This document shows, piece after piece, positions 34,082-64,000 of a DNA stretch of 64,000 bases. The notes below the pieces were generated by a model. That model was not told where the DNA came from and ran no database searches. It worked only from the letters and a program-made list of their open reading frames with translations. The DNA comes from an uncultured delta proteobacterium (GTDB lineage Bacteria; Desulfobacterota; Binatia; UBA9968): contig CAWJZV010000004.1 of the NCBI GenBank assembly GCA_963847445.1, positions 160,001-224,000 of the forward strand. The letters are read 5' to 3'. The position numbers and the translations under genes were made by a program. Every line of letters starts with the position of its first letter. The first letter of the stretch is position 1.

Positions 34082-34085
34082 AGCT

Positions 34086-36842: not shown

Positions 36843-36994
36843 AGTTTGCGGACTTTGCGCTTGCGGCAATCAGCTCGTGAAATCCGACTCGTGCCTCATG
36901 CGTTCCGCTTCAGTCAAATTTTGCGTGCAACGACAATTGCGACCTGTGCCATACCGCCGAGCAGTCGCGCGCAATGAGATACAACATCCATCTT

Positions 36995-37320
36995 CACCAC
37001 GAAGAACACGAAGCGCACGAAGTTCGGGGAAATAATTTCCGAAACCTTCGTAACTACTATCCGTGATAATTTGCGCGGCTTGCGCAAATTGTCCGGGAGC
37101 CGTGACGCCTCGGATTCGGATATTCCTCGCGCCAAGATCGCCAAGGTCGTGAAGTGCGACAGGCCAGGGGCCTGTCATCCTGAGGGAATGCGAAAGATCT
37201 AAGCAGGATTTCTCTCTCCGTTCGAAATGACAACGTTCTTCCTTTGCGCCCTTTAGGTGCTTTGCGCGAGATACTCCAAAATTCGCTTGCGGCTGCGCCG
37301 CGCTGGGTCCTTCGTGGTGA
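36995..37320. repeat. Three-level nested palindromic repeat
   Basis: Outer CACCACGAAG...CTTCGTGGTG; middle CTCGCGCCAAG...CTTTGCGCGAG; inner TGTCATCCTGA...GAAATGACA. Confidence 0.8.
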
Positions 37321-37350
37321 AAATGATCCCCACAGCCGAGGTCTAAATTT

Positions 37351-38361
37351 TTACTGCACATCGAAGCGCGTCGCGCGCTCCGAGACATTATTGAACGCCT
37401 TGGGATGCACCAGCTTGCGGCTGTAGAGCACCATGCGCAGGAAGCCGGGGCTGCCGGTGATGCGGTGCGCCACGCCGCGCGGGATATAGGACATTTGGCC
37501 GGCGTCGAGCTCCATGGCGCCCCATTCGGTGTGATTGAGCGAATGGCCGCGGAATTGAAACCAGATTTCGTCCTCGTCGCAGCCGCGATGAAAACCGTTC
37601 TGCTCTTCCTCAAGATTGTAAACGTCGACGCGAAACTCATTGCCGTTGTATAAAATCGGCGCGCGCGCGCCGCCCTTGCCGGTCATGCCGGTGAAATAAT
37701 TGAACGCGCTCAGCTTGCGCACCGGCCGGCCGCCTTCGCGTTTGCAGCCGATCAACGCCGCGACATCGCGCTCGACCCAGAGATCCGACTGCGGGTCCCA
37801 GAAGCTGATATGCTCCAGCGCCGTTCCATCGCCAGCGCCGTCGGCATTGTGGCCATCGGCGGCGCCGATCGGCTCCGACGGTTTGACGCGGAACTTATTT
37901 TGCGTCAGCGGCGTCTCCGGATCGACGCCTTCAGTCATCGCTTCCTGGGTCGCCACGCGCACGCGCAAGCATTGGTCCGAACCGGTGCTGCGATGGGCAA
38001 TCGCCGAAGGAACCAGGGCGATCTCTCCGGGCTCGATTTCGATGACGCCGCCTTCGCTCTCGATCTTCGAGCGGCCGCAGAACTGCAAATAAACGATGTC
38101 GTAATCCGCCGCGCGGGTCAGCTGGGTCTCGCGGCCGGCGATAAGCTCGGTGCACACGCGCAAGGCATCGCCCTCGAACACCGTCGCCCGCGCCCGGTTG
38201 CCGTTAAGCGGCGTGCTGCGCAGTAAATCGAACGGCCGGATATGCGGCACCATCCTTTGCCCCATGCGCGCCGTGCCGATCACCGCGCTTTCGTCGCGCT
38301 CCATCCAGATATGCTCCGATGGTTCTCGGTGGGTCATAAATTCACGAATTTTCTTCGCCAT
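37351..38361 (-). CDS. Bicupin protein, homogentisate-dioxygenase-like cupin signature
   Basis: Two repeats: R.ADYDIVYLQF.G...E.G....PGE...VP..IAHR and FHRGCDEDEIWFQFRG...TEWG...IPRGVAHR. Confidence 0.7.
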   Translation of the reverse strand: MAKKIREFMTHREPSEHIWMERDESAVIGTARMGQRMVPHIRPFDLLRSTPLNGNRARATVFEGDALRVCTELIAGRETQLTRAADYDIVYLQFCGRSKIESEGGVIEIEPGEIALVPSAIAHRSTGSDQCLRVRVATQEAMTEGVDPETPLTQNKFRVKPSEPIGAADGHNADGAGDGTALEHISFWDPQSDLWVERDVAALIGCKREGGRPVRKLSAFNYFTGMTGKGGARAPILYNGNEFRVDVYNLEEEQNGFHRGCDEDEIWFQFRGHSLNHTEWGAMELDAGQMSYIPRGVAHRITGSPGFLRMVLYSRKLVHPKAFNNVSERATRFDVQ

Positions 38362-38460
38362 AACATTCTCCTGTTCAATTCAAAAGTCGACCTTCTTGAA
38401 CGTCGCCCTCACACATTTCCACTTTTCTTTTCTCGCGTTTCTCTACTGAGCTACCATCAC

Positions 38461-39414
38461 TCAATTCTTGATTCCCAGCTCCCTTTGCGCGTCTCGCAAA
38501 ATCGACAAATCCTCTACCTCGCTGAGAGACACTTCTCGGGTCACCTTCGCCACCCGCTTAGCCTCGTCGATCAGCAACCGCAGCCCGATATCGGGGAGAT
38601 TGAGATCCTCACTATACGTCTTCACGGAGGAGTCATAGGTCGCCGCCGCCATCTCTTTATCAATCTTCAGCCACTCTGCCATGATTGAAAGCGTGCCGTC
38701 GCGATTCTGACGAATGTACCGGTTCGCCTTGATACCCGCTTTGATTACCCTCTTGATCTCATCCGGCCTTTCTTGAATCTTCTTCGCGCTTGCGATCAAC
38801 CCGCTCAAGGGAAAACTGAATAGCTCGTGGGCTCGCGTGAGCACAACAAATCCCAACTTCTTGCCGAGAAAATCGATAGGCGGGCCTCCTAACGTCGCAG
38901 AAGTCAATCCCTGTTTCATGGCACCAAAGCGAGAGTCGACGGGTCCGGTTGCAAGAAACTTGACCTCATTGTCAGGGTCGATGTTGAAATGCCGTAGTAT
39001 GAGCCTGGCTATCCCTTCAAGAGCGCCGCCGTAAGCGTTGACGCCGATCGTTTTATTCTTCAATTCAGGGACGGACTTTATTTCCGGCCGGGCGATGAGC
39101 GCCGTGGGGGAAACTGGCACGTAAGCGGCAACGAGCTTGACGGGAACTCCACGGATCGCGGCGGCCACTCCAGGGCCGAGCACGGTATAGTAATCGATCT
39201 CGCCGCTGACCAACGCTTGAAGTGCGATCGCTGGATTGATCCTGATAAACTCCCCTTGAAGTCCTTCCTCCTTGAAAAAGCCACGCTTGTCGCCGATAGC
39301 GAGCGGAACGAACGGCGCGGCAAGATCCGGGTATCCGATCCTGATTTTGTCAACTGCGTGACCCAACGCGGGGAACGCAAATAAAACTAACAATACCAAG
39401 AGAGTTTTTTTCAA
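38461..39414 (-). CDS. NMT1/TauA-like substrate-binding protein (orphan)
   Basis: CAGGAG RBS + TTG; GFFKEEGL, ALVSGEIDY, DLSILRDAQRELG. Confidence 0.88.
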   Translation of the reverse strand: MKKTLLVLLVLFAFPALGHAVDKIRIGYPDLAAPFVPLAIGDKRGFFKEEGLQGEFIRINPAIALQALVSGEIDYYTVLGPGVAAAIRGVPVKLVAAYVPVSPTALIARPEIKSVPELKNKTIGVNAYGGALEGIARLILRHFNIDPDNEVKFLATGPVDSRFGAMKQGLTSATLGGPPIDFLGKKLGFVVLTRAHELFSFPLSGLIASAKKIQERPDEIKRVIKAGIKANRYIRQNRDGTLSIMAEWLKIDKEMAAATYDSSVKTYSEDLNLPDIGLRLLIDEAKRVAKVTREVSLSEVEDLSILRDAQRELGIKN

Positions 39415-39492
39415 AGATGACTCCTGTAAGATTATGTGGTCGATTGTTGATCCTAGCTCGCCAGTCACAAAGGACGGTTTGAAAGCTGCTTC

Positions 39493-45324: not shown

Positions 45325-46053
45325 GTGATCGAATTTAGCAAGGTCAACAAATGGTTCGGCGCGCTCCATGTGCTGAGCGACATCGACCTCAGCATCGCTG
45401 CCGGGAACGTGGTGGTGGTCTGCGGCCCGAGCGGCAGCGGCAAAAGCACTCTGATCCGTTGCATCAATCGCCTCGAAACCATCCAATCCGGCGAGATCAT
45501 CGTCGACGGAATATCATTGTCGGACCCCAAGATCGACGCCGCCAAGCTGCGCGCCAACGTCGGCATGGTGTTCCAATCATTCAATCTCTATCCGCACATG
45601 ACGGTGTTGCAAAATATCACCCTGGCGCCGGTCAAAGTTAGAAACGTCGCCGCCGCCGATGCCGAAAAAACCGCCAATCAATTGCTGGAGCGCGTCGGCA
45701 TTCCCGACAAAGCCGATGTCTATCCGGCAAATCTTTCCGGTGGCCAGCAGCAGCGCGTCGCCATCGCCCGCGCGCTAGCGATGAAGCCCAAGGTCATGCT
45801 CTTCGACGAGCCGACCTCGGCCCTCGATCCCGAAATGATCAACGAAGTGCTGGAAGTCATGACCGACCTGGCCAAGGACGGCATGACCATGGTGGTGGTC
45901 ACTCACGAAATGGGCTTTGCCCGGCGCGTCGCCCATCGGGTCGTCTTCATGGATCAGGGTAAGATCGTCGAGACCGCCGAACCGGAAACCTTTTTCGCCG
46001 AGCCGCAATCGGTCCGAGCGCAACAGTTCTTAAGCAAAATACTTTCACACTGA
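45325..46053 (+). CDS. Polar amino acid ABC transporter ATPase
   Basis: [29 protein letters not shown]. Confidence 0.96.
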
Positions 46054-46064
46054 GGAGCAAATTT

Positions 46065-46922
46065 ATGAAACGATCGTTAGCAATCCTAGCCCTCGCATAC
46101 GTTCTCATAGCCCTGACTGACGCGGGCCACGCGCAAAACACCTTGGAGAAAATCGACAAGAGCGGCACACTGACCATCGGCACGCGCAACGGCTCACCGC
46201 CGTTCGCTTATATCAACAAAAACAATGACTGGGTTGGTTTTTCCATCGATCTCGTCGAGCATGCGATTCTACCGGCGTTGAACAAAAAGCTTAACAAACA
46301 AATCAAGCTGGAAAAAAAGGAGTCGGCGCCAGCGACGCGCATTCCCCTGCTCACCTCCAACGCCGTCGATCTGATCGCCGAGACCATGACCGACACCCAG
46401 TCGCGGCGCGACCAAGTCGACTTCAGTTTGACCTTCTTCGTCACCGGCGCGCAATTCCTCGTGCGCAAAGGCAGCCCGGTGAAGAACATCGAAAGCATCG
46501 CCGGCAAACGGATCGCCGCCCAGCAAGGCTCGACCAACGCCAAAATAATTCGCGAGCGCGTGCCCAGCGCCAAGCTGGTGGAATTCCCCGACCAGCCCGC
46601 CGCATTCCAAGCGCTGTCCCAGCGCCAAGTCGATGCCTACACCAACGACGGCATTCAGCTCGCCGGGTTGAAAGCCAAGGCGCCCAAACCAGATGACTGG
46701 GCGGTGGCCGGCGAGTTTTTTTCCTACGAGCCCTACGGCATGGCGATGCGCAAGAACGATTCGGACTTTCGCCAAGTCGTCAACGTCGGCCTAATGGATG
46801 CGATCGCTTCCGGCCGATACGCGGAAATTTACGAAAAATGGTTCGGCGCCAAAGGCGAAGTCCCCTACCCGCTGACGCCGGAAAACAAACGCTTCTTACA
46901 GCTTCAAGTCGTGCCCAAATAA
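46065..46922 (+). CDS. Polar amino acid ABC substrate-binding protein (GltI-like)
   Basis: Signal peptide, SPPF, GFSIDL, TRIPLL, EPYG. Confidence 0.93.
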   Translation: MKRSLAILALAYVLIALTDAGHAQNTLEKIDKSGTLTIGTRNGSPPFAYINKNNDWVGFSIDLVEHAILPALNKKLNKQIKLEKKESAPATRIPLLTSNAVDLIAETMTDTQSRRDQVDFSLTFFVTGAQFLVRKGSPVKNIESIAGKRIAAQQGSTNAKIIRERVPSAKLVEFPDQPAAFQALSQRQVDAYTNDGIQLAGLKAKAPKPDDWAVAGEFFSYEPYGMAMRKNDSDFRQVVNVGLMDAIASGRYAEIYEKWFGAKGEVPYPLTPENKRFLQLQVVPK

Positions 46923-46927
46923 AATAC

Positions 46928-47005
46928 CGGAGTGCTGGAGTACTGGAGTGCTGGTCTTAAAACCCAATACTCCATCACTCCATTACTGCAATTCTCCAGT
47001 TCTCC
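46928..47005. repeat. Nonamer hairpin (GGAGTGCT)n...(ACTCCA)n inside the operon
   Basis: ggagtgctggagtactggagtgctgg ... aatactccatcactccattactgc. Confidence 0.75.
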
Positions 47006-47012
47006 ATCCCCA

Positions 47013-47738
47013 ATGTCCTACAATTTCAACTGGAGCGTGCTGTGGACCGGCCAGTCGGGCAGCTGGCTGATTCAGGGCGTTCTCACCACACTGCATATTT
47101 TCGCTCTCGGACTGCTGATTGCACTCGCTCTCGGAATCGTTGCCGGCGCGTTACGGACCATGCCGTTTGCGCCGCTGCGCTGGCTCGCCAGCGGCTATGT
47201 CGAATTTTTTCGCAACGTGCCGCTATTGGTCTGGATGTTTTTCTGGTATTTCGGCGTGCCGCCTTTGTTGCCGCAGGCGATTCAGAACTGGCTCTTCGAT
47301 CACGGCGTGGAATTCTGGGCCGGAGTCTTCGCGATCGGTGTCTACCACGGCGCGCGCTTTTCTGAAGTCATCCGCGCCGGCATTCAATCGATTCCCAAGA
47401 CCCAGTTAGAAGCCGCCCTGTCCACCGGACTGACCATCGGTCAAGCCTATCGATTGATCATCGTGCCCATCGCCCTGCGCTTGATCATCCCGCCGGCAAC
47501 CAATGAAATTGTCAACCTGCTCAAGAACTCCTCGGTGGCATTGACCATCGGCGTCGCCGAGCTGACCTTTCAAACCCGCCAGATTGAAACCTACACAGCC
47601 AGGGCCTTCGAAGCGTTGGCCGCCGGCACGATCATATATTTAATCCTCTGTCTCGCCATCGCTTCGATCATGGCCGGCGTCGAGCGGCGCGTCGCTATCC
47701 CCGGCATGATCGCCCAAGGACAGACCGGAGCGTCCTAA
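47013..47738 (+). CDS. Polar amino acid ABC permease
   Basis: YVEFFRNVPLLV, EVIRAGIQSIP, NLLKNSS. Confidence 0.95.
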   Translation: MSYNFNWSVLWTGQSGSWLIQGVLTTLHIFALGLLIALALGIVAGALRTMPFAPLRWLASGYVEFFRNVPLLVWMFFWYFGVPPLLPQAIQNWLFDHGVEFWAGVFAIGVYHGARFSEVIRAGIQSIPKTQLEAALSTGLTIGQAYRLIIVPIALRLIIPPATNEIVNLLKNSSVALTIGVAELTFQTRQIETYTARAFEALAAGTIIYLILCLAIASIMAGVERRVAIPGMIAQGQTGAS

Positions 47739-47739
47739 A

Positions 47740-48414
47740 ATGGATTTCTCGGTCGTCACCGACAACTTCGTCTTTCTGATCGCCCAAGGATTTCTCGGTA
47801 TCGGCGCCTTCACCGGCGGGACGTTGCGGCTGGCCGTTCCGGCGATCGTCCTAGGTTTTATTCTCGGCACCCTGGTTGGCCTGGCGCGCCTGTCACAAAG
47901 CCGCTGGCTGCACTGGCCGGCGAAAGTTTATATCGAGTTCTTCCGCGGCGTGCCGCTGGTCATGGTGATCTTTTGGTTCTGGTTCATCGTCCCGACCTTG
48001 GCTGGGAAATCTCTGCCGGAGTACGCGGTGGCACTGACCGCCTTTGTGATTTTCGAAGCCGCCTACCTGGCGGAAATCGTCCGCGCCGGCATCCAATCGG
48101 TGCCACGCGGCCAAGTCGAAGCCGCCACCGCCACCGGCCTCTCGCAGCATCAACTGATGCGCCATGTCATCCTGCCTCAAGCCCTGCGCAACATGATCCC
48201 CGCCCTGGTGACCCAATTCATCGTTCTGTTGAAAGACACATCCCTGGCATCGATCATCGGCTATGTCGACCTCACCAAAGCCGCCCAGATCGTCAACAAT
48301 CGCGAGATCCGCCCCTTCGAACTCTATCTCTTCATCGCCATTGTCTATTGGCTATGCAGCTACGCCATGTCGCGCTACGCGCAACGCTTAGAATCGCGGC
48401 TGGCGTCGCACTAG
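47740..48414 (+). CDS. Polar amino acid ABC permease
   Basis: YIEFFRGVPL, EIVRAGIQSV, LLKDTSL. Confidence 0.95.
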   Translation: MDFSVVTDNFVFLIAQGFLGIGAFTGGTLRLAVPAIVLGFILGTLVGLARLSQSRWLHWPAKVYIEFFRGVPLVMVIFWFWFIVPTLAGKSLPEYAVALTAFVIFEAAYLAEIVRAGIQSVPRGQVEAATATGLSQHQLMRHVILPQALRNMIPALVTQFIVLLKDTSLASIIGYVDLTKAAQIVNNREIRPFELYLFIAIVYWLCSYAMSRYAQRLESRLASH

Positions 48415-53207: not shown

Positions 53208-53323
53208 CAGGGCCGATTGAAATTGAATCTGGCCGCGAAGTCAACGTGCCAGCCTTTGTTTCAACCTACCAGTTGTTGTACTGTTGTCAGGGGCGATCCC
53301 ACCATCGGTTTTGGAGGTCCGGA

Positions 53324-54322
53324 ATGAAACATGTTTCGCAAATTTTTGCCCTTTGGAGCGTCATCACCGTAATCCAATTTGCCGCGCAAACTAGCTTTGC
53401 TGCGGACAAGCTCAACACCGCATATATCTCGACCACGCCGGGAACATCGACGGTGATCCAGGTCGCCAAGGAAGCTCGCCTGTTCGACAAACATGGCATC
53501 GACGCCACCGTTATTTTCATTTCCGGCAGCGTGCGCGGCATCCAGTCAATTCTCGCAGGAGAAATTCCCATCGGCGAAGGCGGCGGCCCCGGTCTGGCCA
53601 GCGCGCGGCTCGCCGGCGGCGATGTCGTCGCCATCGCCGGCAACGTCAACGTGTTGCCCTATTATTTAGTTTCCCATCCGAGCATCAAACGGCATGAAGA
53701 TTTGAAAGGTAAGATCGGCGGCACTCATATCGCCGGCACCACCGCCGAGTTCGCCTTGAAAGTGGGGCTGAAACGCATCGGTCTCGACCCGCTCAAAGAT
53801 GTCAGCTTGCGCGTCATCGGCGGCGCCATCGAGCGCATGGTGGCGCTGCAAAAAGGCATCGTCCAGTTCACCGTGGTTACCGAAGCCGGCAAATCTCAGG
53901 CCGAGAGACTCGGCTATCCGACGGTGGTCGACATGGTCACCCTGCAAATCCCCTTTCCGCAGAACGGCATTTATACATCGACAAAGCTGATCCGCGAAAA
54001 CCCCGACCTGGTGCGCCGCTACATGCGCGCCTACGTCGAGGCGCTGCACTTCTATAAAACCCATAAGGAAGACACCTTGAAGTTCATGCGCAAATACTCT
54101 CGCATCGATGACCGCCGCATGCTCGATGAAGCGTGGGATTGGCACGCCAAGTTCATGCCCGAAGCGCCCTACCCGCCCGCCGACGGCTATCAACTGGTGC
54201 TGCAAGATTTAGCCGAGAAGAATCCCAAAGCCGCCCAGGCCAACGTGAAAGATTACATCGACACGCGCTTTGTGAAGGAACTGGAAGACTCGGGGTTTAT
54301 TAAAAGCCTTTATCGTCGATAA
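53324..54322 (+). CDS. NMT1/TauA-like substrate-binding protein (orphan)
   Basis: GGAGG RBS; LFDKHGID, DLKGK, IDTRFVKELEDSGFI. Confidence 0.9.
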   Translation: MKHVSQIFALWSVITVIQFAAQTSFAADKLNTAYISTTPGTSTVIQVAKEARLFDKHGIDATVIFISGSVRGIQSILAGEIPIGEGGGPGLASARLAGGDVVAIAGNVNVLPYYLVSHPSIKRHEDLKGKIGGTHIAGTTAEFALKVGLKRIGLDPLKDVSLRVIGGAIERMVALQKGIVQFTVVTEAGKSQAERLGYPTVVDMVTLQIPFPQNGIYTSTKLIRENPDLVRRYMRAYVEALHFYKTHKEDTLKFMRKYSRIDDRRMLDEAWDWHAKFMPEAPYPPADGYQLVLQDLAEKNPKAAQANVKDYIDTRFVKELEDSGFIKSLYRR

Positions 54323-54327
54323 AGGCT

Positions 54328-54432
54328 GGTTCAAATCGTTCAAGCAGTTCAAGTCGTTCAAAACGTCAGAAGTTCGGAGGCTTTCATCCGAGGCATTCTA
54401 CGGCTTGAACGATTTGAACGTTTTGAACGGTT
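54328..54432. repeat. Nonamer hairpin (GTTCAAnnc)n...(TTGAACGnt)n between convergent genes
   Basis: gttcaaatcgttcaagcagttcaagtcgttcaaaacg ... ttgaacgatttgaacgttttgaacgg. Confidence 0.8.
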
Positions 54433-54888
54433 CTACAATTTCGCTCGCGAAGCTTCGAGCACCTGATGCATCGGCTCGATATCGATGACTAATGCCGAGA
54501 GCTGTAATTTCTCGTCGCGCAGTGATTCCGGCACCTGACCCATCACGTCCGCTTCGAGCACATGATAAACGGGAATCTTGAGCGCCACGCCGGCCAGCGG
54601 CCCGGCGAAACTTGGATCGCCCTCGGTTACCGTCTCGGCGAATACTTCGACGCCGTTAGCCTCGCCGTTGCCCAACACCACGGTCAAATTTTCCGGACCA
54701 TACTGGTCCGCCAGGCGCTTGATGACTCCTTGGTTCTCGAAGTTCATCGCGCCCGCGGCGGTTCAAACAAAGCACTCAGTAGCCTGAAAAACCACCTCGT
54801 AGCCCGCGCCTTCGAGACACTCGGCGATGACCGGGCCGGTGACACCATCCCGTTCGCCGATGGCGATGATCTTTTTACCCTTTTGCAT
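54433..54888 (-). CDS. grdA: Glycine/sarcosine/betaine reductase selenoprotein A (Sec at in-frame UGA 54765-54763)
   Basis: GGAGGT RBS; [14 protein letters not shown]...[19 protein letters not shown]...[17 protein letters not shown]; both halves in one frame, 151 aa. Confidence 0.93.
54715..54752 (-). promoter_or_regulatory. Candidate bacterial SECIS hairpin
   Basis: Starts about 11 nt 3' of the UGA: GCGC-GATG-A-ACTTC-[GAGAACCAA]-GGAGT-CATC-AA-GCGC. Confidence 0.55.
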
Positions 54889-54919
54889 GCGACCTCCACT
54901 AGATACTACCGTTGAAGAA

Positions 54920-55073
54920 AAATTCGAAATCCGAAGCACTAAATCCGAAACAAATTCAATCACCAAAAACACAATGTTCCAAACAAATTCAATTCGGATT
55001 CAGCGTTTTGGATTTTCTTCGGTTTTGGGTTTATTTTGCTACGGTTTGTTTCGGATTTCGTGCTTCGGATTTT
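54920..55073. repeat. Heptamer hairpin (AAATCCG/AAGCACT)n between grdC and grdA
   Basis: aaattcgaaatccgaagcactaaatccgaaacaaa ... tttgtttcggatttcgtgcttcggatttt. Confidence 0.8.
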
Positions 55074-55086
55074 GTTTTTCCCCTGG

Positions 55087-56513
55087 TTAGTCTTCATTCC
55101 GATCGACCAGAAACGAGCAGCCATCCGACAGCTGCGTCATGCGGCCGAGAAACAAACTACCTTTGGCCATGAGCAGCGCGTTGCGAATCGCGCCGCTCTC
55201 GAGCGCCGCCTTGGCATGACCCAAGTAAACGATAGCCGACGGAATATGACCCTGGGTCGGGGCGTAGCCTAGCATGCCGCGGCTGCGGACGAAATCCTCC
55301 ATCTGGTTCTTTTGAATCTGCCCGCGCATCACCGCCAAAGCGGCGAGGGTTAGATAATTCGTCCGCGGCACATCGCCGCTGCCGGAGGGAGCGGTGATTT
55401 CCGGGTTATGCAGCTCGACGCCGTAGCGGTCGACATCGGTCAGCTTCATGCCGAGCTTGGCTAAGGCTTTCTCGGCCAACTCCTCGGCCATCGCTTGCGC
55501 CGAACCGCCGGCGCGCACCGGATGAAACGCCGCGGAGTCCAGCCGCATGCAGACCTGCCCCGGTTTCGCCGCGCTGAGAATCGCCGCGAAACTGCCAAGC
55601 ATGTCTTCGAGCACCGGCATATTTTTTTTCAAATGGGACTCGAACTTCATGCCGAGCTTGGCCAACGACCCGCCGGCGACCACCGCGACCCGTTTCGCGA
55701 CGCCGGCTTGTATCATGCTCGCGCCCTGTACCATCGCATACATCGGACCGGCGCAGAACGCTTTGACATCGCAGCCCGAGGCGTTGCCGCAGCCGACGTC
55801 CTCGGCGATCGCCTTGGCCAGGTTGCCGCCGCCGCGATTGTAACGGTCGCCCACCGCTTCTTCGGAACAGCTGATGACGAAATCGATGTCATCGGGCTTG
55901 AGCGCCAAGCTGCGCTAACACCAGGCGCAACGCGTGGGCCGCGGAAACTTTACCGGATAAATTCTCCAATAAGACTTCGGCGGCCAGACTGGCGTCTTCT
56001 TCGTGAGCCGCCTCAAAGGCGCCGACGAGTTGGGACTCCGAATAAAGCGGCAGCGCGCCTTTGTCGCAGAGCTGTTGAAGTTCGCCCAGCGGCTTGAAGC
56101 GCGCCGCCCGGCCGATCGAATGTTTCGCCGCATGAGCTTGAAACCATTTCTCTTCGAACGAAATCAAATCGAACCGATCCGCGCCGGCGAGCAAAGCATA
56201 AAACTTCGCCTGATCGACCAGATCGCCAAAACGCCCCTGCGCCGTCGCCCCTTCGATCAGTTTCTCAAACCAAGGCTGCGGCAGATCGCGCAGTTTTTCC
56301 GGGCCGATGTTGCCAATGTAAACTTGATGCGGCGCGTAAGCCGTCGCCGCGGGAAAATCACGCAGGAGCCTGGCCAGATCGGCGGCCAGCGCTGGATTAC
56401 CACGCAACTCGCGAATCGGCTTCGAGCCAAAGCGCACCAGATCCGGCACATGGGCCAAGCGAATAGGAAACGCCCTCGATACCGACGCGATTAGGTCTTG
56501 TAAATTCTGCCAT
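55087..56513 (-). CDS. grdC: Glycine/sarcosine/betaine reductase component C beta subunit (KAS III-like fold), frameshifted
   Basis: AHVPDLVRFGSKP, AH.ED..L...VLLENL, CSEEAVGDRYNRGGGN.AKAIAE, AFCAGP, ELHNPEIT, PTQGHIPS, KGSLFLGRMT. Confidence 0.9.
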
Positions 56514-56542
56514 TCGATTAATCCAAAATGATACGCCTTTTA

Positions 56543-56803
56543 TTACTTGGCTTTGAGAGGAAACCTTGCTGGGTGAGCAATAATTTCTTCGCTCAAATCG
56601 ACGTCGAGATCCGGCCAATAGAAATGACCCGGTCTCGGCTCTTCCACGTTCAGTATTTTCCCCACCGGCACATCTCTAAACCATGGAAAATCTTCATAGG
56701 ACATGAACAATTCGCGGTCGCCAGCCAACAGCCAAATGCCATGACTTGAAATATGCGTAACTTCAATCGGGGAAGTATTCTTCCCAAGCGGGCCTACGCT
56801 CAT
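56543..56803 (-). CDS. DUF2442-family protein (putative antitoxin), no partner toxin
   Basis: EVTHISSHGIWLL...YEDFPWF...HFYWPDLDVDL...HP.RFPL. Confidence 0.85.
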   Translation of the reverse strand: MSVGPLGKNTSPIEVTHISSHGIWLLAGDRELFMSYEDFPWFRDVPVGKILNVEEPRPGHFYWPDLDVDLSEEIIAHPARFPLKAK

Positions 56804-56875
56804 TATATGTATCTCTCAATGAATTGTCTCTCAATCCAAAATCTTAGTTTTGCCTTTTTAATTTTTACTTTTGCC

Positions 56876-57928
56876 TTATCTTATGACCCTATCCGCCCGC
56901 GCCAGCACATTCGGCGGCACCGTCACGCCGATCTGCTTGGCGGCTTTCAAATTGACGACGAACTCAAACTTCGTCGGCTGCTCGACTGGAATGTCGGCGG
57001 GCTTGGTGCCTTTCAAGATCTTGTCGACAAAGTCAGCGGCGCGCCGGAATAAGTCCGCATTGTTCGGCGCGTAGCTCATCAAGCCGCCGGCCTCGACAAA
57101 CTCAGTGTATGCGTACATCGCCGGCAAACGGTTCTTTGCCACGAATTCCAACACTTGGCGGTGCTGAGTATTGATAAGTGCACCTGTGGTCGTAATGAGC
57201 GCCTGGGCGCCGTCCCTTTTCGCCCGCGCGAATGCGCTGTCAAAATCGTCAAGGCTTCGCACCGAAAGCGATAGAAGTTTGAGTCCCAACGCCTTGGCCA
57301 CAGCCTCCATGTCTGTGAGGGGCAGGTTTCCCATCGTGCCACCCGATCCTCGCCATAGGAAGGCCACCCGGACAACCTTAGGGAAGGCTTCCTTGAGCAG
57401 CTCCAACCGTTTGCCATCTAGATCCGTCACCATTAGGCTAAGTCCGGTGATATTCCCTCCTGGTCGCGCCAAGCTGGCGACAATCCCAGTTCCTACTGGA
57501 TCGTTCGTACCGCCGAACACGATGGGAATTGTCGCGCTCGCCTTCTTAGCAGCTAAAACAGATTGGACTCCGGTGGTGACGATGACGTCAACTTTGAGAC
57601 GGACCAGTTCGGCTGCAAGGTCAGGCAACCGTTCGAGTTTCCCTTCTGCATATCGGTACTCAATGAAAATGTTTTTCCCTTCGACATAGCCAAGCTCGCG
57701 CAGCCGTTGGCGAAATGCCTCGATCCGGGCCGAAATGAAGGACGCGGAGGGCGGGGCCAGAATTCCTATCCGGGGAATTCCCGCCGGCTGCTGTGCCTCT
57801 ACCACCACCCCGCACATCACGAGCGTGAGGGCGATGATGACAGTCCCACCCCATTTTGGATTTTTGATTTTGGATTTCGGATTGTCGGGGGAAGAAACCC
57901 ACCATCGCATCCAATGCTTATTGCTCAT
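56876..57928 (-). CDS. ABC_sub_bind-type (type I fold) substrate-binding protein, tandem copy 1
   Basis: RIGIL, LRELGYVEGKN, DPV..G.V.SLARPGGNITG, AGGLMSY, PVEQPTKFEFVVNLKAAKQIG. Confidence 0.93.
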   Translation of the reverse strand: MSNKHWMRWWVSSPDNPKSKIKNPKWGGTVIIALTLVMCGVVVEAQQPAGIPRIGILAPPSASFISARIEAFRQRLRELGYVEGKNIFIEYRYAEGKLERLPDLAAELVRLKVDVIVTTGVQSVLAAKKASATIPIVFGGTNDPVGTGIVASLARPGGNITGLSLMVTDLDGKRLELLKEAFPKVVRVAFLWRGSGGTMGNLPLTDMEAVAKALGLKLLSLSVRSLDDFDSAFARAKRDGAQALITTTGALINTQHRQVLEFVAKNRLPAMYAYTEFVEAGGLMSYAPNNADLFRRAADFVDKILKGTKPADIPVEQPTKFEFVVNLKAAKQIGVTVPPNVLARADRVIR

Positions 57929-57971
57929 GTTCTTTTCCCCAATCCAAAATCGAAAATCCAAAGTCCAAAAT
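57853..57971. repeat. Heptamer hairpin (ATTTTGG)n...(CCAAAAT)n enclosing the start of copy 1
   Basis: About 32-nt arms 57853-57884 and 57940-57971. Confidence 0.88.
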
Positions 57972-59020
57972 TATTTTAAGACGCGGTCCGCCCGCGCCAG
58001 CACATTCGGCGGAACCGTCACGCCGATCTGCTTGGCGGCTTTTAGATTGACGACGAACTCGAACTTCGTCGGCTGCTCGACGGGAATGTCGCCGGGCTTT
58101 GTGCCCTTCAATATCTTGTCGACAAAGTCAGCGGCGCGCCGCCATTGGTCCGTTTGGCTTGGCGCGTAGCTCATCAAGCCGCCAGCCTCAACCCACTCAC
58201 TCGTTGGGTACATCGCCGGCAACCGATTCTTTGCCGCGAAGTCCAACACTTGGCGTTGCTGAGTAGTGATAAGTCCACCTACGGCCGTAATGAGCGCCTG
58301 GACGCCTTCCCTTTTCGCTCGTGCAAATGCGCTCTCAAAATCGTCCAGGCTTCGCACCTCCAGCGATAGAAGTTTGAGTCGCAACGCCTTGGCCGCAGCT
58401 TCCATGTCTGTAAGGGTTAAGTTTCCTCTCGCACCACCCGACCCCCCCCAGAGGAAGGCCACCCGGGCAATCTTAGGGAAGGCTTCCTTGAGCAGCTCCA
58501 ACCGCTTGCCATCTAGATCTGGCGCCATCACGCTAAGTCCGGTGATATTCCCTCCTGGTCGCGCCAGGCTGGAAACGAACCCACTTCCTACTGGATCGGA
58601 AGCAAGAGCGAATACGATGGGAATCGTCGCGCTCGCTTTCTTAGCAGCTAAAACAGCCGAGCTGACGGTGACGATAACATCAACTTTGAGACCGACCAGT
58701 TCGGCTGCAAGGGCAGGCAGCCGTTCGAGTTTCCCCTCTGCATATCGGTACTCAATGACAATGTTTTTCCCTTGGACATAGCCAAGCTCGCGCAGCCGTT
58801 GGCGAAATGCTTCGAGCCGGGCCGAAATGTTGGACGCGGAGGTCGTGATCAGAATTCCTATCTGGGGAATTCCCGCCGGCTGCTGCGCCTCGACCACCAC
58901 CCCGCACATCGCGAGCGTGAGGGCGATGACGACAGTCCCACCCCATTTTGGATTTTTGATTTTGGATTTTGGATTGTCGGAAGAAGAAACCCACCATCGC
59001 ATCCAATGCTTTTTGCTCAT
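57971..59020 (-). CDS. ABC_sub_bind-type substrate-binding protein, tandem copy 2
   Basis: Intact 349-aa ORF with the same framework as copy 1. Confidence 0.93.
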   Translation of the reverse strand: MSKKHWMRWWVSSSDNPKSKIKNPKWGGTVVIALTLAMCGVVVEAQQPAGIPQIGILITTSASNISARLEAFRQRLRELGYVQGKNIVIEYRYAEGKLERLPALAAELVGLKVDVIVTVSSAVLAAKKASATIPIVFALASDPVGSGFVSSLARPGGNITGLSVMAPDLDGKRLELLKEAFPKIARVAFLWGGSGGARGNLTLTDMEAAAKALRLKLLSLEVRSLDDFESAFARAKREGVQALITAVGGLITTQQRQVLDFAAKNRLPAMYPTSEWVEAGGLMSYAPSQTDQWRRAADFVDKILKGTKPGDIPVEQPTKFEFVVNLKAAKQIGVTVPPNVLARADRVLK

Positions 59021-59063
59021 GTTCTTTTCCCCAATCCAAAATCGAAAATCTAAAATCCAAAAT
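58945..59063. repeat. Heptamer hairpin enclosing the start of copy 2
   Basis: Arms 58945-58976 and 59032-59063. Confidence 0.88.
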
Positions 59064-60116
59064 TATTTTAAGACTCGATCCGCCCGCGCCAGCACATTCG
59101 GCGGAACCGTCACGCCGATCTGCTTCGGCGATCTTCAGGTTGATCGACGAACTCAAACTTCGTCGGCTGCTCGACGGGAATGTCGGCGGGCTTGGTGCCT
59201 TTCAAGATCTTGTCGACAAAGTCAGCGGCGCGCCGCCATAAGTCCGCATAGTTCGGCGCGTAGCTCATCAAGCCGCCGGCCTCAACAAACTCACTCGTCT
59301 GGGTACATCGCCGGCAACCGGTTCTTTGCCGCGAAGTCCAACACTTGACGTTGCTGAGTAGTGATAAGTGGACCTGGGGTCGTAATGAGCGCCTGGGCGC
59401 GTTCCCTTTTCGCTCGCGCGAATGCGCTCTCAAAATCGTCAAGGCTTCGCACCTCAAGCGATTGAAGTTTGACTCCCAACGCCTTGGCCGCAGCCTCCAT
59501 GTCTGTGAGAGCTCAGGTTTCCCCTCGTACCACCCGATTCCCAGAGGAACGCCACGCGGGCAACCTTGGGGAAGGCTTCCTTGAGCAGTTCCAACCGTTT
59601 GCCATCTAGATCCGGCGCCATGATGGCAAAGTCCGGTGATATTCCCGCCTGGTCGCGCCAGGCTGGAGACAAGCCCAGCTCCTACTGGATCGGCAGCAGA
59701 GCCGAATACGATGGGAATTGTCGCGCTCGCCTTTTTAGCAGCTAAAATAGCCCGGGCCGGTGGCGACGATGACGTCAACTTTGAGACGGACCAGCTCGGC
59801 TGCAAGGTCAGGCAGCCGTTCGGGTTTCCCTTCTGCGTATCGGTACTCAATGAAAATGTTTTTCCCTTCGACGTAGCCAAGCTCGCGCAGCCGTTGGCGA
59901 AATGCTTCGACCCGGGCCGAAATGACGGACGCGGAGAACGGGATCAGAATTCCTATCCGGGGAATTCTCGCCGGCTGCTGCGCCTCGGCCACAACCCCGC
60001 ACATTGCGAGTGCGAGCACGAGGGCGACAGAGCCCCACCGATTTTGGATTTTGGATTTTCGATTTTGGATTGTCGGATCGAAGCCAGCGAATTGCAGTCC
60101 AAAATTTCTTTGTCAT
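59063..60116 (-). CDS. ABC_sub_bind-type substrate-binding protein, tandem copy 3 (several indels)
   Basis: Fragments 59847-60116, 59735-60019, 59454-59672, 59291-59500 and 59110-59880 tile the same protein. Confidence 0.88.
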
Positions 60117-60173
60117 GTCCTAGTCCTCCAATCCAAAATCCAAAAGCGGCCCCGCGGACGCAAATCCAAAATC
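60040..60173. repeat. Heptamer hairpin enclosing the start of copy 3 (GC-rich insert in one arm)
   Basis: gattttggattttggattttcgattttggattg ... caatccaaaatccaaaa[gcggccccgcggacgc]aaatccaaaatc. Confidence 0.85.
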
Positions 60174-60179
60174 AGTATT

Positions 60180-61231
60180 CTAATGACCCGATCCGCCCGC
60201 GCCAGCACATTCGGCGGGAATCGTCAGGCCGATCTGCTTGGCGGCTTTCAGATTGATGACGAACTCGAACTTCGTCGGCTGCTCGACGGGAATGTCGCCG
60301 GGCTTTGTGCCCTTCAAGATTTTGTCGACAAAGTCAGCGGCGCGCCGGAATAAGTCCGCATAGCTCGGCGCGTAGCTCATCAAGCCGCCGGCCTCAACCA
60401 ACTCACTCGTTGGGTACATCGCCGGCAACCGGTTCTTGGCCGCGAAGTCCAACACTTGGCGTTGCTGAGTAGTGATAAGTGGACCTGGTGGTCGTAATGA
60501 GCGCCTGGGCGCCGTCCCTTTTCGCTCGCGCGAATGCGCCCTCAAAATCGTCAAGGCTTCGCACCTCAAGCGATTGAAGTTTGACTCCCAACGCCTTGGC
60601 CGCAGCCTCCATTTCTGTGAGAACCAGGTTTCCCCTCGGACCACTCGATCTGGCCAGAGGAAGGCCACCCGGGCAACCTTGGGGAAGGCTTCCTTGAGCA
60701 GTTCCAATCGTTTGCCATCTAGATCTGGCGACATGACGCTAAGTCCGGTGATATTCCCGCCTGGTCGTGCCAGGCTGGAAACAAACCCAGTTCCTACTGG
60801 ATCGCCAGAAGAGGCGAATACGATGGGAATTGTCGCGCTCGCCTTCTTGGCAGCTAAAGCAGCGCGGCCGGTGGTGACGATGACGTCAACTTTGAGACGG
60901 ACCAGCTCGGCTGCAAGGTCAGGCAGCCGTTCGCGTTTCCCTTCTGCGTATCGGTACTCAATGAGAATGTTTTTCCCTTCGACATAGCCAAGCTCGCGCA
61001 GCCGTTGGCGAAATGCTTCGACCCGGGCCGAAAAGAAGGACGCGGAGGCCGTGATCAGAATTCCTATCCGGGGAATTCTCGCCGGCTGCTGCGCCTCGAC
61101 CACACCCCGCAGATCGACGAACGTGATGACGAGAGTGACAAGCCCCACCGATTTTAGACTGCGAGGCCGATTTTGGATTTTGATTTTGGATTTCGGAACA
61201 AAGCCGCCATCGCATCCAATCTCTTTGTCAT
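60180..61231 (-). CDS. ABC_sub_bind-type substrate-binding protein, tandem copy 4 (indels)
   Basis: ORF 60180-61262 plus 60403-60612 give the same framework. Confidence 0.9.
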
Positions 61232-61272
61232 GTTCTATTCCCAATCCAAAATGCCAGGTCAAAATCCAAAAT
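61150..61272. repeat. Heptamer hairpin enclosing the start of copy 4
   Basis: gattttag[..]gattttggattttgattttggatttcgg ... caatccaaaat[..]caaaatccaaaat. Confidence 0.8.
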
Positions 61273-61283
61273 GACTTGCCTTT

Positions 61284-61844
61284 CTAGCTCCGTGAAGCTG
61301 TGATGCTTCAAGAACACCTCAGCATCGCCGGCAGAGAAGAAGACCAATTTGACGGCATCGATCGATTTATCAACCGACAGAAACTGCTCGATGGTGCGCG
61401 ACGACACACCCGCTGCCTTATCCATCGGATAACCGTAAATCCCGGTGGAGATCGCCGGGAAAGCGATTGACTTGAGTCCATGCGTCAACGGCTAGACGTA
61501 ATGAATTGAAATAGCACGCCGCCAACAGTTCGGCCTTGTCCGACGCCACCGCTGCCGTAGACCGGACCGACGGTGTGAATCACATACTTCGCTGGCAATT
61601 TTCCACCTATGGTGATCACCGCCTCTCCGGTGGGCAATCCATCGGGATACTGTGTCCGGCGAATCTCCGCGCAAGCCGCTTTGATCTCCGGCCCGCCGGC
61701 GCGGTGAATCGCGCCGTCCACACCGCCGCCACCCATCAACGTGCCATTGGCCGCGTTGACGATGGCGTCGACCGCTTCTTTGGTGATGTCGCCGACATTG
61801 ATCGCGACCCGGCCAGCCAAGTAGGTTTTAAGCGCAGTCATCAT
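61284..61844 (-). CDS. Macrodomain O-acetyl-ADP-ribose deacetylase (YmdB-like), frameshifted
   Basis: [50 protein letters not shown]; end approximate. Confidence 0.92.
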
Positions 61845-61920
61845 CTCTCCCGCTTTATATTACTATCGCGCAAGTTTGCGAGCTTGGGCAAATCATGATT
61901 CGAAGCTCTCGATCGGAATT

Positions 61921-62060
61921 CCTCCCGCAAGGCGCAAAGAGCCAAGTTCGGAATTGTTGTCATTTCGACCGGCGGGAGAAATCTTCAGATCCCTCGCGAT
62001 TGCTCGGGATGACGGGCATCGGTTCCACCTTTGCGCCTTAGCGCCTTTGCGGGAGAGATT
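61921..62060. repeat. Second copy of the composite element at 27442-27590
   Basis: cccgcaaggcgcaaagagccaagttcggaattgttgtcatttcgacc...cgggatgacgggcatcgg...gcgcctttgcgggag. Confidence 0.85.
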
Positions 62061-62395
62061 CCGGTTTCGGTTGCACCTGTTCGCCAACAGGCGAAGCTCT
62101 TTTTCCCAGCGCAGTCTGGGGAAAACATGAGTTGCAATCTATTAGAATTTGCCACGCCTGCGCAAATTGTGTTGCCACCCGTCGCCGCTCCACCACCCCA
62201 GGGCGTATGACATACGCCACATTTCGGATCTCGTTTTGCGCCCTTTGCGTTCCTTGCGGCCATTCTTCCGAATCCGCATCTTCTCTCTGTGACCTCTGTC
62301 ACAGCGTCACACTGGTCAAGCGCGCGCGCTTGACTCCCGCGCCACAAACAAGCCAAAGTACCAGCCGATTCCAGCTCAACATCGCGAGGCTCTCG

Positions 62396-63362
62396 ATGAT
62401 CGTCAACTGTGTCGCCTATGAGAACGGACGGAGACTAACCAACATACCGGTGAGCGAGATTCATTCCTACATTTCTCACGCGGATTGTTTCGTCTGGGTG
62501 GCGCTCAACGACGCGACACCGGAAGAGCTCCAGGCGATGCAAGAGGAATTCGGCCTCCACGATCTCGCTCTGGAAGATGCCCAGCATGGCCATCAGCGGC
62601 CGAAGATTGAAGAATACGAAGACTCGCTGTTTGCCGTCTTGCAAATGATCGAACGCAGCGGTGACGAGTTGAATGTTGGCGAGGTCGGCATATTCGTCGG
62701 CACCAATTATGTTCTGTCGGTGCGCTCCGGCGCCGAACGCGGCTTTACCGATGTGCGCGCCCGCTGCGAGCGCGAGCCCGAACTATCTGCGCCATGGCTC
62801 GGGCTACGTCCTCTACGCTCTGATGGACGCGGTCGTCGACCGTTATTTTCCAATACTCGACGATCTCGAAACCGAGATTGAAAATATCGAAGACCGCATG
62901 TTCGCCAACCAGAACGCCAGGGATAACATCGAGGCGCTCTACGATTTGAAGCGCAAGTTGTTGACTCTCAAGCATGCCACCGAGCCGTTGCTCGAAGCCA
63001 CCAGCAAACTGTTCGGCGGCCGCGTGCCGCGGCTGGCGGTGGGACTGCAAGACTATTTCCGTGATGTTTACGATCATGTGCTGCGCGTGCACCAATCCGT
63101 CGACAGCCTGCGCGACATGATCACTACCGCCATCTCGGTGGCGATCTCGCTCATCACGATTCAAGAAAACGAAGTGACCAAGCGACTCGCCGGCTATGGC
63201 GCTTTGGTCACGGTGCCGACATTAATCGCAGGGATTTACGGCATGAACTTCCAGCACATGCCGGAACTTAGCTCGCCCTGGGGTTATCCGTTCACCGTCG
63301 CGGCAATGATCGCCATCGATCTCTTTTTGTTCTGGCGCTTCCGCAAAGCCAAGTGGATTTAG
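62396..63362 (+). CDS. corA: Mg2+/Co2+ transporter CorA (one indel)
   Basis: LHDLALEDA..GHQRPKIEEY, YFRDVYDH, GIYGMNF.HMPEL. Confidence 0.95.
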
Positions 63363-63499
63363 CTCGCCGGCAACGAAATCGTTTGGATTCGATGGCGCAC
63401 GAGAGAGAGGGTCAGTCGCTCGCCAATGGCGCGAAGATTCGCCGCGAGCCATGAACTTTGGCAAAGTCGTATTCATTCCAAGGTAATCGTTTGGAACCG

Positions 63500-64000
63500 T
63501 TGAGCCGCACCGAACCAACTCCCGAGTTACAGGACACTGAACCGCGGTGGCCGGCTTTCGTAGCCGTGCTGGCGGCGGGCGGTCTCTATGCCGCATTACC
63601 CGAAGTCTTGACCATGGGCCCGCGTTGGCTCTTTCCATCGGTCGTTTTGGCGCTGCTGATTCCCAACATCGTTTCTCATCATACCGGCAGCCATCGGCTT
63701 AACACGCTCATCGGATTCACCGTCGACGCTGTGCTCACGGCCGGACTCATTATAGCCCTCGGACTCTTAGTCACTGCTCTGCCGACGAAGAAGGTAACGC
63801 CCATCGCGCTGCTGCTCGCGGCGGCATCCCTGTGGGTTACCAATATTCTAGTCTTTGCACTGTGGTATTGGCGGCTGGATGCCGGCGGGCCGCATCAACG
63901 GGACAAACGCGCGGTACACAGCGAAGGGGCGTTTCTCTTTCCGCAAATGACTATGAGCGAAGCTGCGTTGAGACAAACCGGCCAACGGCGCTGGTCGCCG
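63500..64000 (+). CDS. DUF1345-like membrane protein (start uncertain, runs off window)
   Basis: Manual translation EPRWPAFVAVLA...GPRWL...LWVTNILVFALWYWRLDAGGP...FLFPQM. Confidence 0.8.
   Translation, partial: MSRTEPTPELQDTEPRWPAFVAVLAAGGLYAALPEVLTMGPRWLFPSVVLALLIPNIVSHHTGSHRLNTLIGFTVDAVLTAGLIIALGLLVTALPTKKVTPIALLLAAASLWVTNILVFALWYWRLDAGGPHQRDKRAVHSEGAFLFPQMTMSEAALRQTGQRRWSP

Follow-up and report, generated by a model that had tools for sequence, protein, structure and literature searches.

Structure of the array

The stretch of DNA studied here, referred to below as the window, comprises 64,000 nucleotides of contig CAWJZV010000004.1 from an uncultured delta proteobacterium (assembly GCA_963847445.1). 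A repeat search revealed, at positions 56876–61262 on its minus strand, four head-to-tail units with start-to-start distances of 1092–1112 nt and inter-unit spacers of 42–63 nt, in good agreement with an earlier note on this DNA, which had described four same-strand units with a period of about 1.09–1.12 kb. All four units match the Pfam family PF04392 (ABC_sub_bind, COG2984-type; cut-off 25.9 bits). Against this profile the intact copies 1 and 2 reach 169.8 and 165.3 bits, and copies 3 and 4 match it piecewise, with pieces of 65.1, 23.7 and 130.3 bits. The four genes are as follows (ORF, open reading frame):

56876..57928, minus strand: copy 1, an intact PF04392 gene encoding 350 aa from the ATG at 57928 (a TTG at 57961 would give 11 aa more)
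57971..59020, minus strand: copy 2, an intact PF04392 gene encoding 349 aa, 83% identical to copy 1 (P0004)
59063..60116, minus strand: copy 3, a PF04392 gene broken, as compared with copies 1 and 2, by six single-base insertions; two of its ORF pieces match Pfam
60180..61262, minus strand: copy 4, a PF04392 gene in which about 55 codons are garbled by a -1/+1 frameshift pair; it also has a +1 shift near the 3' end and an uncertain start

All four units are full length, each with a ribosome-binding site, a start region and a putative signal sequence of its own. In a four-way DNA alignment the mean column identity is 89%, and the copies differ from one another by 10–17%. Outside the variable loops, in what we call the framework, the number of synonymous substitutions per synonymous site (dS) is 0.09–0.23 and that of non-synonymous substitutions per non-synonymous site (dN) is 0.04–0.05. 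The framework, described in the earlier note as almost identical between copies, is therefore only conserved. The loop strings listed in that note are all present in the translations.

The N-terminus, read by eye, has a basic N-region and a hydrophobic stretch, GGTVIIALTLVMCGVVV, together with a VEA|QQ motif. An AlphaFold2 model of copy 1, built on the alignment of homologues, reached a predicted local distance difference test score (pLDDT) of 82.5, with values below 50 for residues 1–48, and its strands and helices alternate as in type-I binding proteins. Its best Foldseek matches were 3lkv, 6hni and 3lft (E-values of 1.2e-22 to 3e-22, target-normalised template-modelling scores of 0.82–0.84). 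The four genes are thus predicted to encode periplasmic type-I solute-binding proteins of the PF04392 family, which, judging from sequence, would be exported.

Location of the variable positions

A search of a protein collection with copy 1 gave at least 8000 matches, every one of the 8000 candidates scored being a match; the best 120 are 55–100% identical to copy 1. Of these, 118 were aligned, two proteins of 573–578 aa (P0005 and P0016) being left out; the other 117 are 73–96% identical to copy 1. Among the 305 mature positions, 196 have an entropy below 0.5 bit and 34 have at least 1.5 bit. The 34 hypervariable positions (52, 58–60, 64, 65, 98, 119, 121–124, 140, 142, 147, 165, 167, 194, 195, 198, 203, 206, 247–250, 253, 273, 274, 290, 294, 319, 324 and 340) coincide with the loops of the earlier note. 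In copy 1 most of them fall in the following patches, defined by entropy in the 118 homologues:

57734..57757, minus strand: residues 58–65 (APPSASFI), after strand 53–58
57557..57574, minus strand: residues 119–124 (TGVQSV), after strand 115–118; the length differs by one residue among the copies
57488..57511, minus strand: residues 140–147 (GTNDPVGT), with 140, 142 and 147 variable around a conserved DPVG
57428..57436, minus strand: residues 165–167 (LMV), at the end of strand 160–165
57320..57349, minus strand: residues 194–203 (GSGGTMGNLP), after strand 187–192
57170..57190, minus strand: residues 247–253 (TTGALIN), after strand 243–246; T246/T247 align to Val-235/Pro-236 of CD0873
57107..57112, minus strand: residues 273–274 (AY), aligned to Ala-262/Glu-263 of CD0873, Ala-246 of VC_1101 and Ala-268 of SP1069
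57047..57061, minus strand: residues 290–294 (NADLF); N290 aligns to Tyr-262 of VC_1101, Gln-284 of SP1069 and Tyr-279 of CD0873

We defined a strand-C-terminal zone as the last three residues of each strand and the seven residues beyond it, which covers 110 of the 305 mature residues. This zone contains 28 of the 34 hypervariable positions (odds ratio 10.8, Fisher P = 6e-9). The same positions are the most variable ones among 218 distant paralogues that are 40–68% identical (2.89 vs 1.44 bits, P = 2e-13). Residues 296–350, the last 55 or so of the protein, are almost invariant across these paralogues and may be a docking or structural element common to all copies.

Ligand selectivity has been described for three solved members of the family, VC_1101, SP1069 and CD0873. 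Side-chain preference is set by two residues (Ala-246/Tyr-262 in VC_1101, Ala-268/Gln-284 in SP1069 and Glu-263/Tyr-279 in CD0873), and Ala-262 and the carbonyls of Val-235/Pro-236 of CD0873 also bear on the ligand hydroxyl (PMC6816091). The residue-number offsets between these proteins and copy 1 were derived from HMMER alignments. The contact residues named for these proteins fall on positions 274, 290, 273 and 246/247 of copy 1, all of which except 246 are hypervariable. Four or five hypervariable positions are thus aligned to ligand-contacting residues named for 3LKV, 3LFT and 6HNI. The predicted location of the variable sites in the ligand cleft is well supported by secondary structure and by these four or five aligned contacts.

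Amplification in place

A single gene of the clade to which the four copies belong (clade A) was found at the syntenic site of three relatives (L063, L031 and L006; L007 and L002 duplicate two of them). The order of genes there is CorA, Macro, one clade-A gene, a DUF2442 gene (in two of the three) and glycine-reductase-associated genes. The single gene of L063 aligns without a break both with the segment from the glycine-reductase genes through DUF2442 to copy 1 (55092–57873) and with that from copy 4 to Macro (60179–61892), as expected from tandem amplification in place. Since three relatives have one gene at this site, the array arose by in-situ amplification from one ancestral gene located between the Macro/CorA and glycine-reductase genes.

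It should be mentioned that the ORF for glycine reductase selenoprotein A (54433–54747, minus strand) matches only positions 47–144 of the 147 of its profile; the missing N-terminus probably lies beyond an in-frame UGA encoding selenocysteine.

Selection at the variable codons

Pairwise Nei–Gojobori estimates for the loops of the earlier note gave dN/dS of 1.7–4.1, compared with 0.18–0.39 for the framework, but these loops had been picked because they were variable. Two further tests were therefore made on a nucleotide tree of 14 clade-A sequences, comprising the four copies and 10 distinct intact ORFs with at least 72% identity over at least 300 aa; shorter or broken clade-A ORFs, e.g., those of L063 and L012, were left out. 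In the first test the 34 positions were defined on 116 homologues, with the window's own two proteins excluded. Codon parsimony assigned 248.2 non-synonymous and 46.8 synonymous changes to the hypervariable codons, that is, 3.34 per non-synonymous site vs 1.69 per synonymous site (ratio 1.98, binomial P = 3.8e-6); the framework ratio on the same tree was 0.30.

In the second test the sites were the 34 most variable ones among the 218 distant paralogues, chosen without reference to clade A; 19 of them overlap the first set. The clade-A ratio at these sites was 1.44 (P = 0.006). Among the four copies, the proportion of non-synonymous differences (pN) at these sites over the gene-wide proportion of synonymous ones (pS) was 1.6–2.7 (Fisher P from 2.7e-5 to 0.023, the pairs not being independent), and for the intact copies 1 and 2 pN/pS was 2.03 (P = 6e-4). 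The synonymous rate of the variable codons was similar to that of the rest (1.69 vs 1.98 in the first test and 1.95 vs 1.94 in the second). Mutation is thus not locally elevated, and conversion by short tracts from distant paralogues is improbable.

Once formed, the loops are stable and are retained in orthologues: P0002 and P0003 share 91% of the hypervariable residues of copy 1 (framework identity 98% and 94%), and P0042 shares 84% of those of copy 2 (framework identity 95%). Homologue pairs with 94–96% framework identity average 58% identity at variable positions; P0006, for example, is 96% identical to copy 3 in the framework and 56% in the loops. Even so, loop divergence is far faster than scaffold divergence.

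Our preferred explanation, to which we give a probability of about 0.7, is that one gene was amplified in tandem and that positive selection then acted on cleft residues of the resulting orphan binding proteins. The coincidence with contact sites, dN/dS above 1 at independently defined sites and the in-situ amplification all favor duplication with diversifying selection, one of the two origins that the earlier note had proposed.

Frameshifts and quality of the assembly

Compared with copies 1 and 2, the mature part of copy 4 contains three indels that change the frame, and its signal region contains further ones. The earlier note marked only this copy as frameshifted; copy 3, with its six single-base insertions, is broken as well. 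The mature part of copy 3 has six private indels and only about 17 private substitutions, compared with 35 and 44 private substitutions in copies 1 and 2, and this ratio of indels to substitutions fits consensus errors better than natural decay. The framework dN/dS of copies 3 and 4 is still 0.18–0.39.

At least five unrelated genes of the same 64 kb are also split by frameshifts, which points to a high indel error rate of the assembly:

205–3190: split pieces of MetH
5815–8178: split gene of the Metalloenzyme family
16447–18508: split gene for an ADP-forming acyl-CoA synthetase
61228–61844: split Macro gene, adjoining the array
62132–63362: split CorA gene

Further split genes were found on other contigs of the same genome. 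Raw reads of the source were not found among public runs, none of which contained more than 22% of the sampled words, the matches all being contigs. Among short public fragments of relatives, which come from other organisms or paralogues and so weigh neither for nor against the frameshifts, the array structure or variation within the population, several do not contain the extra bases that break copies 3 and 4 (e.g., at 59146, 59300, 59624/59627, 59750, 60216/60219, 60489 and 60864). Because unrelated genes of the window are split in the same way, the private substitutions are few and the framework is still constrained, the frameshifts of copies 3 and 4 are probably assembly errors.

These data bear on the possibility that the loops are merely unconstrained, through relaxed selection or through decay of redundant duplicates, and that no selection for new specificities has occurred. 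The broken frames of two copies in the assembly would fit it, as would the weak codon bias of the genes (effective number of codons, Nc, of 55–56) and a whole-gene dN/dS of about 0.5 against syntenic orthologues, which is high. However, the pocket-site ratio is significantly above 1 even when the sites are defined independently, the loops are conserved between orthologues, and variable positions match the ligand contacts named for solved homologues. The ratio of indels to substitutions in copy 3 fits consensus errors better, and unrelated genes of the window are split in the same manner. We therefore regard mere loss of constraint as unlikely.

The same errors raise the question whether the array itself is an artefact, in which strain variants or dispersed paralogues were misjoined head to tail. 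Apart from the many indel errors, an estimated contamination of 6.9% (completeness 92%) speaks for this. Yet the copies differ by 10–17% of their DNA, each has a complete spacer and hairpin (see below), and the outer copies join cleanly to the syntenic flanks. Moreover, among 77 related loci of other assemblies (recorded as uncultured delta proteobacterium, Syntrophobacter sp. SbD2, Deltaproteobacteria, Thermodesulfobacteriota, Candidatus Binatia bacterium and others), 61 contain same-strand arrays of two to 11 PF04392 ORFs, and one relative has 21–22 such genes in a row. A misassembled array is thus very unlikely.

Mosaic structure and low synonymous divergence

The phylogenetic signal changes along the four copies. 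All 22 informative sites that group copies 1 and 2 against 3 and 4 lie before alignment column 900, whereas seven of the 11 sites that group 1 and 3 against 2 and 4 lie after it (Fisher P = 7.7e-5). In a test of the pairwise homoplasy index (PHI) type on the 14 sequences, none of 500 permutations reached the observed value, and the tree itself is star-like, with weak internal support (0.17–0.96). Hence the copies are mosaics, and their scaffold has been partly reshuffled by recombination or gene conversion.

We compared the region 55087–63999 of the window with L063, L031 and L006. The dS of the binding-protein gene was 0.19–0.24, 0.24–0.30 and 0.33 against the three relatives, compared with 0.15–0.84 (six genes), 0.58–0.79 (five) and 0.84–0.86 (three) for flanking genes. 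Its dN of 0.11–0.18 was equal to or above that of the flanks in most comparisons. Two candidate causes of the low dS were rejected. Codon bias does not account for it, because the Nc of 55–56, compared with 37–48 in 12 other genes of the window, indicates the weakest bias of the 14 genes measured. Nor do the antisense ORFs of 171–172 aa that are conserved within copies 1, 2 and 4 (57171–57689, 58266–58781 and 60472–60987, plus strand). By frame arithmetic, the third codon positions of the two strands fall together, so that these ORFs would hardly constrain synonymous sites; they are probably a by-product of codon usage. Four-fold degenerate sites show modest rate heterogeneity (17 of 65 invariant vs 9.6 expected). 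Possible causes of the low dS are allele exchange between lineages, concerted evolution, or constraint at the DNA or RNA level.

It can be hypothesized that the uniformity of the scaffold results mainly from concerted evolution, i.e., conversion between copies together with allele exchange between related lineages, recency and purifying selection alone being insufficient. The star-like tree, the PHI-type test, the switching signal, a dS below that of the flanks against all three syntenic relatives, a codon usage unlike that of neighboring genes and pairs such as P0006 and copy 3 are all in line with this idea. On the other hand, the dS of the gene still grows with species distance, as in vertical descent at a lower rate, the heterogeneity at four-fold sites is only modest, the comparison covers one locus in three relatives, and no transfer vehicle was seen. 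We consider this hypothesis possible but somewhat doubtful; it is compatible with tandem amplification followed by positive selection.

Evidence against a dedicated diversification system

The earlier note had allowed for a dedicated mechanism as the source of the loop diversity. Such a mechanism could be a diversity-generating retroelement, targeted hypermutation or programmed conversion from silent cassettes of the vls/pilS kind. In its favor, the variation forms discrete patches on an otherwise uniform scaffold, 115 of the 118 homologues have distinct loop signatures, a recombination signal is present, and the disrupted frames of two copies would suit silent cassettes. However, synonymous changes are no more frequent at the hypervariable codons than in the framework (1.69 vs 1.98 per synonymous site), and the patches occupy eight places over about 700 nt instead of one variable region. 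Copies 3 and 4 retain a constrained framework, none of the copies lacks a ribosome-binding site, a start region or a putative signal sequence, and the orthologues of copies 1 and 2 keep their hypervariable residues.

Furthermore, we found no adenine bias: the template base was A at 19–29% of mismatches in all 12 ordered pairs of copies, and the sequence contains 22% A. No reverse transcriptase gene was found near the array, the only RVT_1 match of the genome being at C45:931–1624, on another contig than the window (C4). Since synonymous rates are not raised, adenine bias is lacking, the only reverse transcriptase is encoded elsewhere and orthologues keep 84–91% of their loop residues, a dedicated diversifier is not supported, and we regard it as scarcely credible. 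The array resembles diversity-generating retroelements in its focused variability of ligand-binding residues on a fixed scaffold. Unlike them, it lacks a nearby reverse transcriptase, a template repeat and an adenine-specific pattern, and its patches are many and separate. Silent-cassette systems of the vls/pilS type have one expressed copy and promoterless truncated donors; here, instead, all four units are full length.

Hairpins at the gene starts

Each gene of the array begins within an inverted repeat:

57836..57985, minus strand: imperfect GGATTTTGGATTT-type inverted-repeat hairpin of about 30 bp, enclosing the ATG of copy 1 with its ribosome-binding site and first codons
58928–59077, minus strand: equivalent hairpin of copy 2
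60023–60172, minus strand: equivalent hairpin of copy 3
61121–61270, minus strand: equivalent hairpin of copy 4

The predicted RNA folds have energies of -48.1 kcal/mol for copy 1 (z = -3.3) and -54.4 kcal/mol for copy 2 (z = -6.3), and are weaker for copies 3 and 4 (z = -1.6 and -1.0). The 3' arm of the hairpin encodes the conserved N-terminal DNPKSKIKNPKW. Allowing one mismatch, we found 85 GGATTTTGGATTT units in the genome vs about 4 expected, 22 of them within the PF04392 zones that make up 0.86% of the genome. The hairpins could control translation or promote unequal recombination.

An Rfam scan of 54000–62500 gave only two sub-threshold look-alikes of microRNA precursors on the hairpins, which were rejected. 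A scan for promoters and terminators revealed three promoter-like sequences vs 2.1 expected and two terminator-like ones vs 6.5, none of them between the copies on the minus strand. The stable synteny in three relatives opposes the reading of the inter-gene hairpins as integron cassettes.

Orphan status and possible membrane partners

As stated in the earlier note, no permease or ATPase accompanies the genes: none of the matching type was found within about 8 kb of the array. The nearest parts of an ATP-binding cassette (ABC) transporter, at 45325–48414 on the opposite strand, belong to a polar-amino-acid system (SBP_bac_3/BPD_transp_1). The only PF02653 permeases of the genome are four LivHM-type pairs located elsewhere, in LivHMGF-type systems. 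Two of these four loci have an adjacent binding protein (Peripla_BP_6 in one and Peripla_BP_5 with Peripla_BP_6 in the other); in the other two, no binding protein was found among the ORFs scanned. The related loci are organized similarly: a BPD_transp_2 permease was found in none of the 77 and an ABC ATPase in three.

A different arrangement was revealed in a relative, in an operon-like cluster of L119 (3612–10435). Its first gene encodes a 661-aa protein that matches PF04392 twice; then come, in this order, genes for a STAS-domain protein (about 410 aa), a single BPD_transp_2 permease, an ABC ATPase and a GAF-SpoIIE-HATPase_c_2 protein. The STAS-permease-ATPase part of this cluster is also present in another relative, in L118 (16040–18847). 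The permease and ATPase of L118 and L119 look like the canonical partner of PF04392 proteins, joined here to a STAS protein and to SpoIIE-type phosphatases. As a whole, the L119 cluster is a binding-protein ABC module wired to a set of partner-switching signaling proteins. A tblastn search with the single permease and the STAS protein of these relatives gave no match in the present genome, which is 92% complete.

Expansion of the family in the genus

The genome has 60 matches to the PF04392 profile, corresponding to about 42 loci, 35 of which span at least 800 nt; same-strand arrays of two to five are located in six contig regions. Clade A is represented here by the window's four genes only, the other paralogues being at most 55% identical to copy 1. 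The family was detected in all 24 genomes of the genus sampled, in four of five from a second family of the order and in none of 11 from a third. With copy 1 as a query, 28 of 30 genus genomes gave a match at E <=1e-60. One genus genome contained 259 first-look candidates, and all 67 of those scored matched. The genus tallies include an unpublished genome (G005), whose L020 ORFs were also among those from which the 218 paralogues were drawn; none of the conclusions rests on this genome.

An uninterrupted run of 21–22 same-strand PF04392 genes, split ones counted, was found in a relative of the same genus (L120:830–19950 and L121:756–4479). This array is followed by genes for a hydantoinase, NMT1-type binding proteins, an AMP-binding ligase and a LivKHMGF-type transporter. 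At the syntenic site of a relative (L122), another array of the present genome (L113, G000:C27:134000–148000) is apparently shorter or lacking, and one L113 gene has dozens of DNA matches with 76–85% identity in each of three relatives. The PF04392 arrays look dynamic across the genus. The array described here is a small part of an expansion of orphan PF04392 genes that extends over the whole genus.

Proposed role of the array

Under tandem amplification with positive selection, duplication would supply spare copies and selection would alter about 30 pocket residues, so that each copy probably captures a different small solute. The scaffold would be kept by purifying selection and occasional conversion. 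The loaded proteins would then be presented to one membrane partner that they share and that is encoded elsewhere in the genome, either an importer of the ABC type or a sensor; candidates are a LivHM-type importer, an unassembled cognate permease, or a signaling module like that of the relatives. The family, the fold, the amplification, the sites of variation, dN/dS above 1 at pocket sites, the mosaic signal and the lack of adjacent transporter genes are observations, whereas export, distinct ligands and a shared partner are inferred.

As to the ligands, amino-acid-like or aromatic acids are our guess by analogy, because the three solved members of the family bind aromatic amino acids and the window encodes LigAB-, LigXa- and UbiD-type enzymes for aromatic compounds together with eight binding proteins of other families. 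Densely set in two parts of the window (21730–39468 and 53246–54322), four NMT1-type binding-protein genes, one of them LVIVD-fused (22933–25125), and three of the SBP_bac_1 type adjoin genes for aromatic ring cleavage and decarboxylation (LigB, LigA, a LigXa-like Rieske protein and UbiD).

Several points weigh against this explanation. The dS between copies 1 and 2 (0.25) is about the same as that to the gene of the nearest relative (0.19–0.24), so the first duplication may predate the split, with loss in the relatives. The 14-sequence tree does not resolve the four copies as a single clade. The dS of the gene is only 0.4–0.6 of that of the flanks despite the weak codon bias, which simple vertical descent does not explain. 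The dN/dS counts come from parsimony on a star-like, poorly supported tree of 14 sequences from a recombining family, and close to the indels of copies 3 and 4 the phase assigned to some codons may be wrong. The mapping of the variable sites onto the three-dimensional structure is indirect, through secondary structure and four or five aligned contacts. Ligand, export and partner are all predicted from sequence, and in a 92%-complete genome the cognate permease could be unassembled.

A broader hypothesis, which we consider rather unlikely, is that the whole clade forms an environmental receptor repertoire: thousands of near-identical scaffolds would carry combinatorial pockets, their DNA would be kept uniform by recombination or exchange across species, and one transporter or sensor would serve them all. 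If true, this would explain why the tree is star-like, why codon usage is atypical and why dS is lower than in the flanks, and the hairpin repeats at the gene 5' ends could aid the exchange. The clade would then be a bacterial analogue of an olfactory or innate-receptor family with birth-and-death dynamics. The term "receptor-repertoire-like" of the earlier note is apt as an analogy for the genus-wide family, but not in the sense of a somatic or programmed process.

Returning to the amplification of a single gene under positive selection, the locus appears to catch an expansion early: one gene has become four, with a scaffold about 90% identical and divergence at identifiable pocket residues. 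Few gene families of bacteria have been amplified to a very large size, and those of orphan binding proteins are among them. The small set of proteins in the array is tractable for ligand screening and may show which chemical space is sampled by an abundant uncultured lineage of soil and sediment. The approximately 30 variable positions could also serve as a natural mutational map for engineering the specificity of PF04392 binding proteins.

Comparison with known systems

VC_1101 (3LKV, with Phe), SP1069 (3LFT, with Trp) and C. difficile CD0873 (6HNI, with Tyr) belong to the same Pfam family and have the same fold as the proteins of the array, and their selectivity residues align to its hypervariable positions. 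However, they are only about 25% identical to them and are described as parts of ABC import systems. In contrast, the array is tandem and has no adjacent permease or ATPase, which are a usual feature of the family. The library searched yielded no paper that describes expansions of PF04392 or positive selection in this family.

The closest known analogue is the expansions of orphan receptors of tripartite tricarboxylate transporters (TTT/Bug, TctC, PF03401), alike in working and not in family. Such expansions occur in Bordetella, Cupriavidus and Rhodoplanes sp. Z2-YC6860 (434 genes), form same-strand tandem arrays of up to nine genes and are ascribed to lineage-specific duplication under environmental selection (PMC5994714). 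Both systems have many paralogues per genome, far fewer membrane partners and same-strand arrays. The TTT/Bug receptors differ from the ABC-type PF04392 proteins in family, transporter class and lineage. Members of their arrays are mostly less than 50% identical, whereas here the identity is 83%, the divergence is focused on the pocket and dN/dS exceeds 1. Thus, the present array extends the TTT/Bug phenomenon to an ABC-type family, and what is new in it is this family, the much younger age of the array and a divergence focused on ligand-contact positions with dN/dS above 1.

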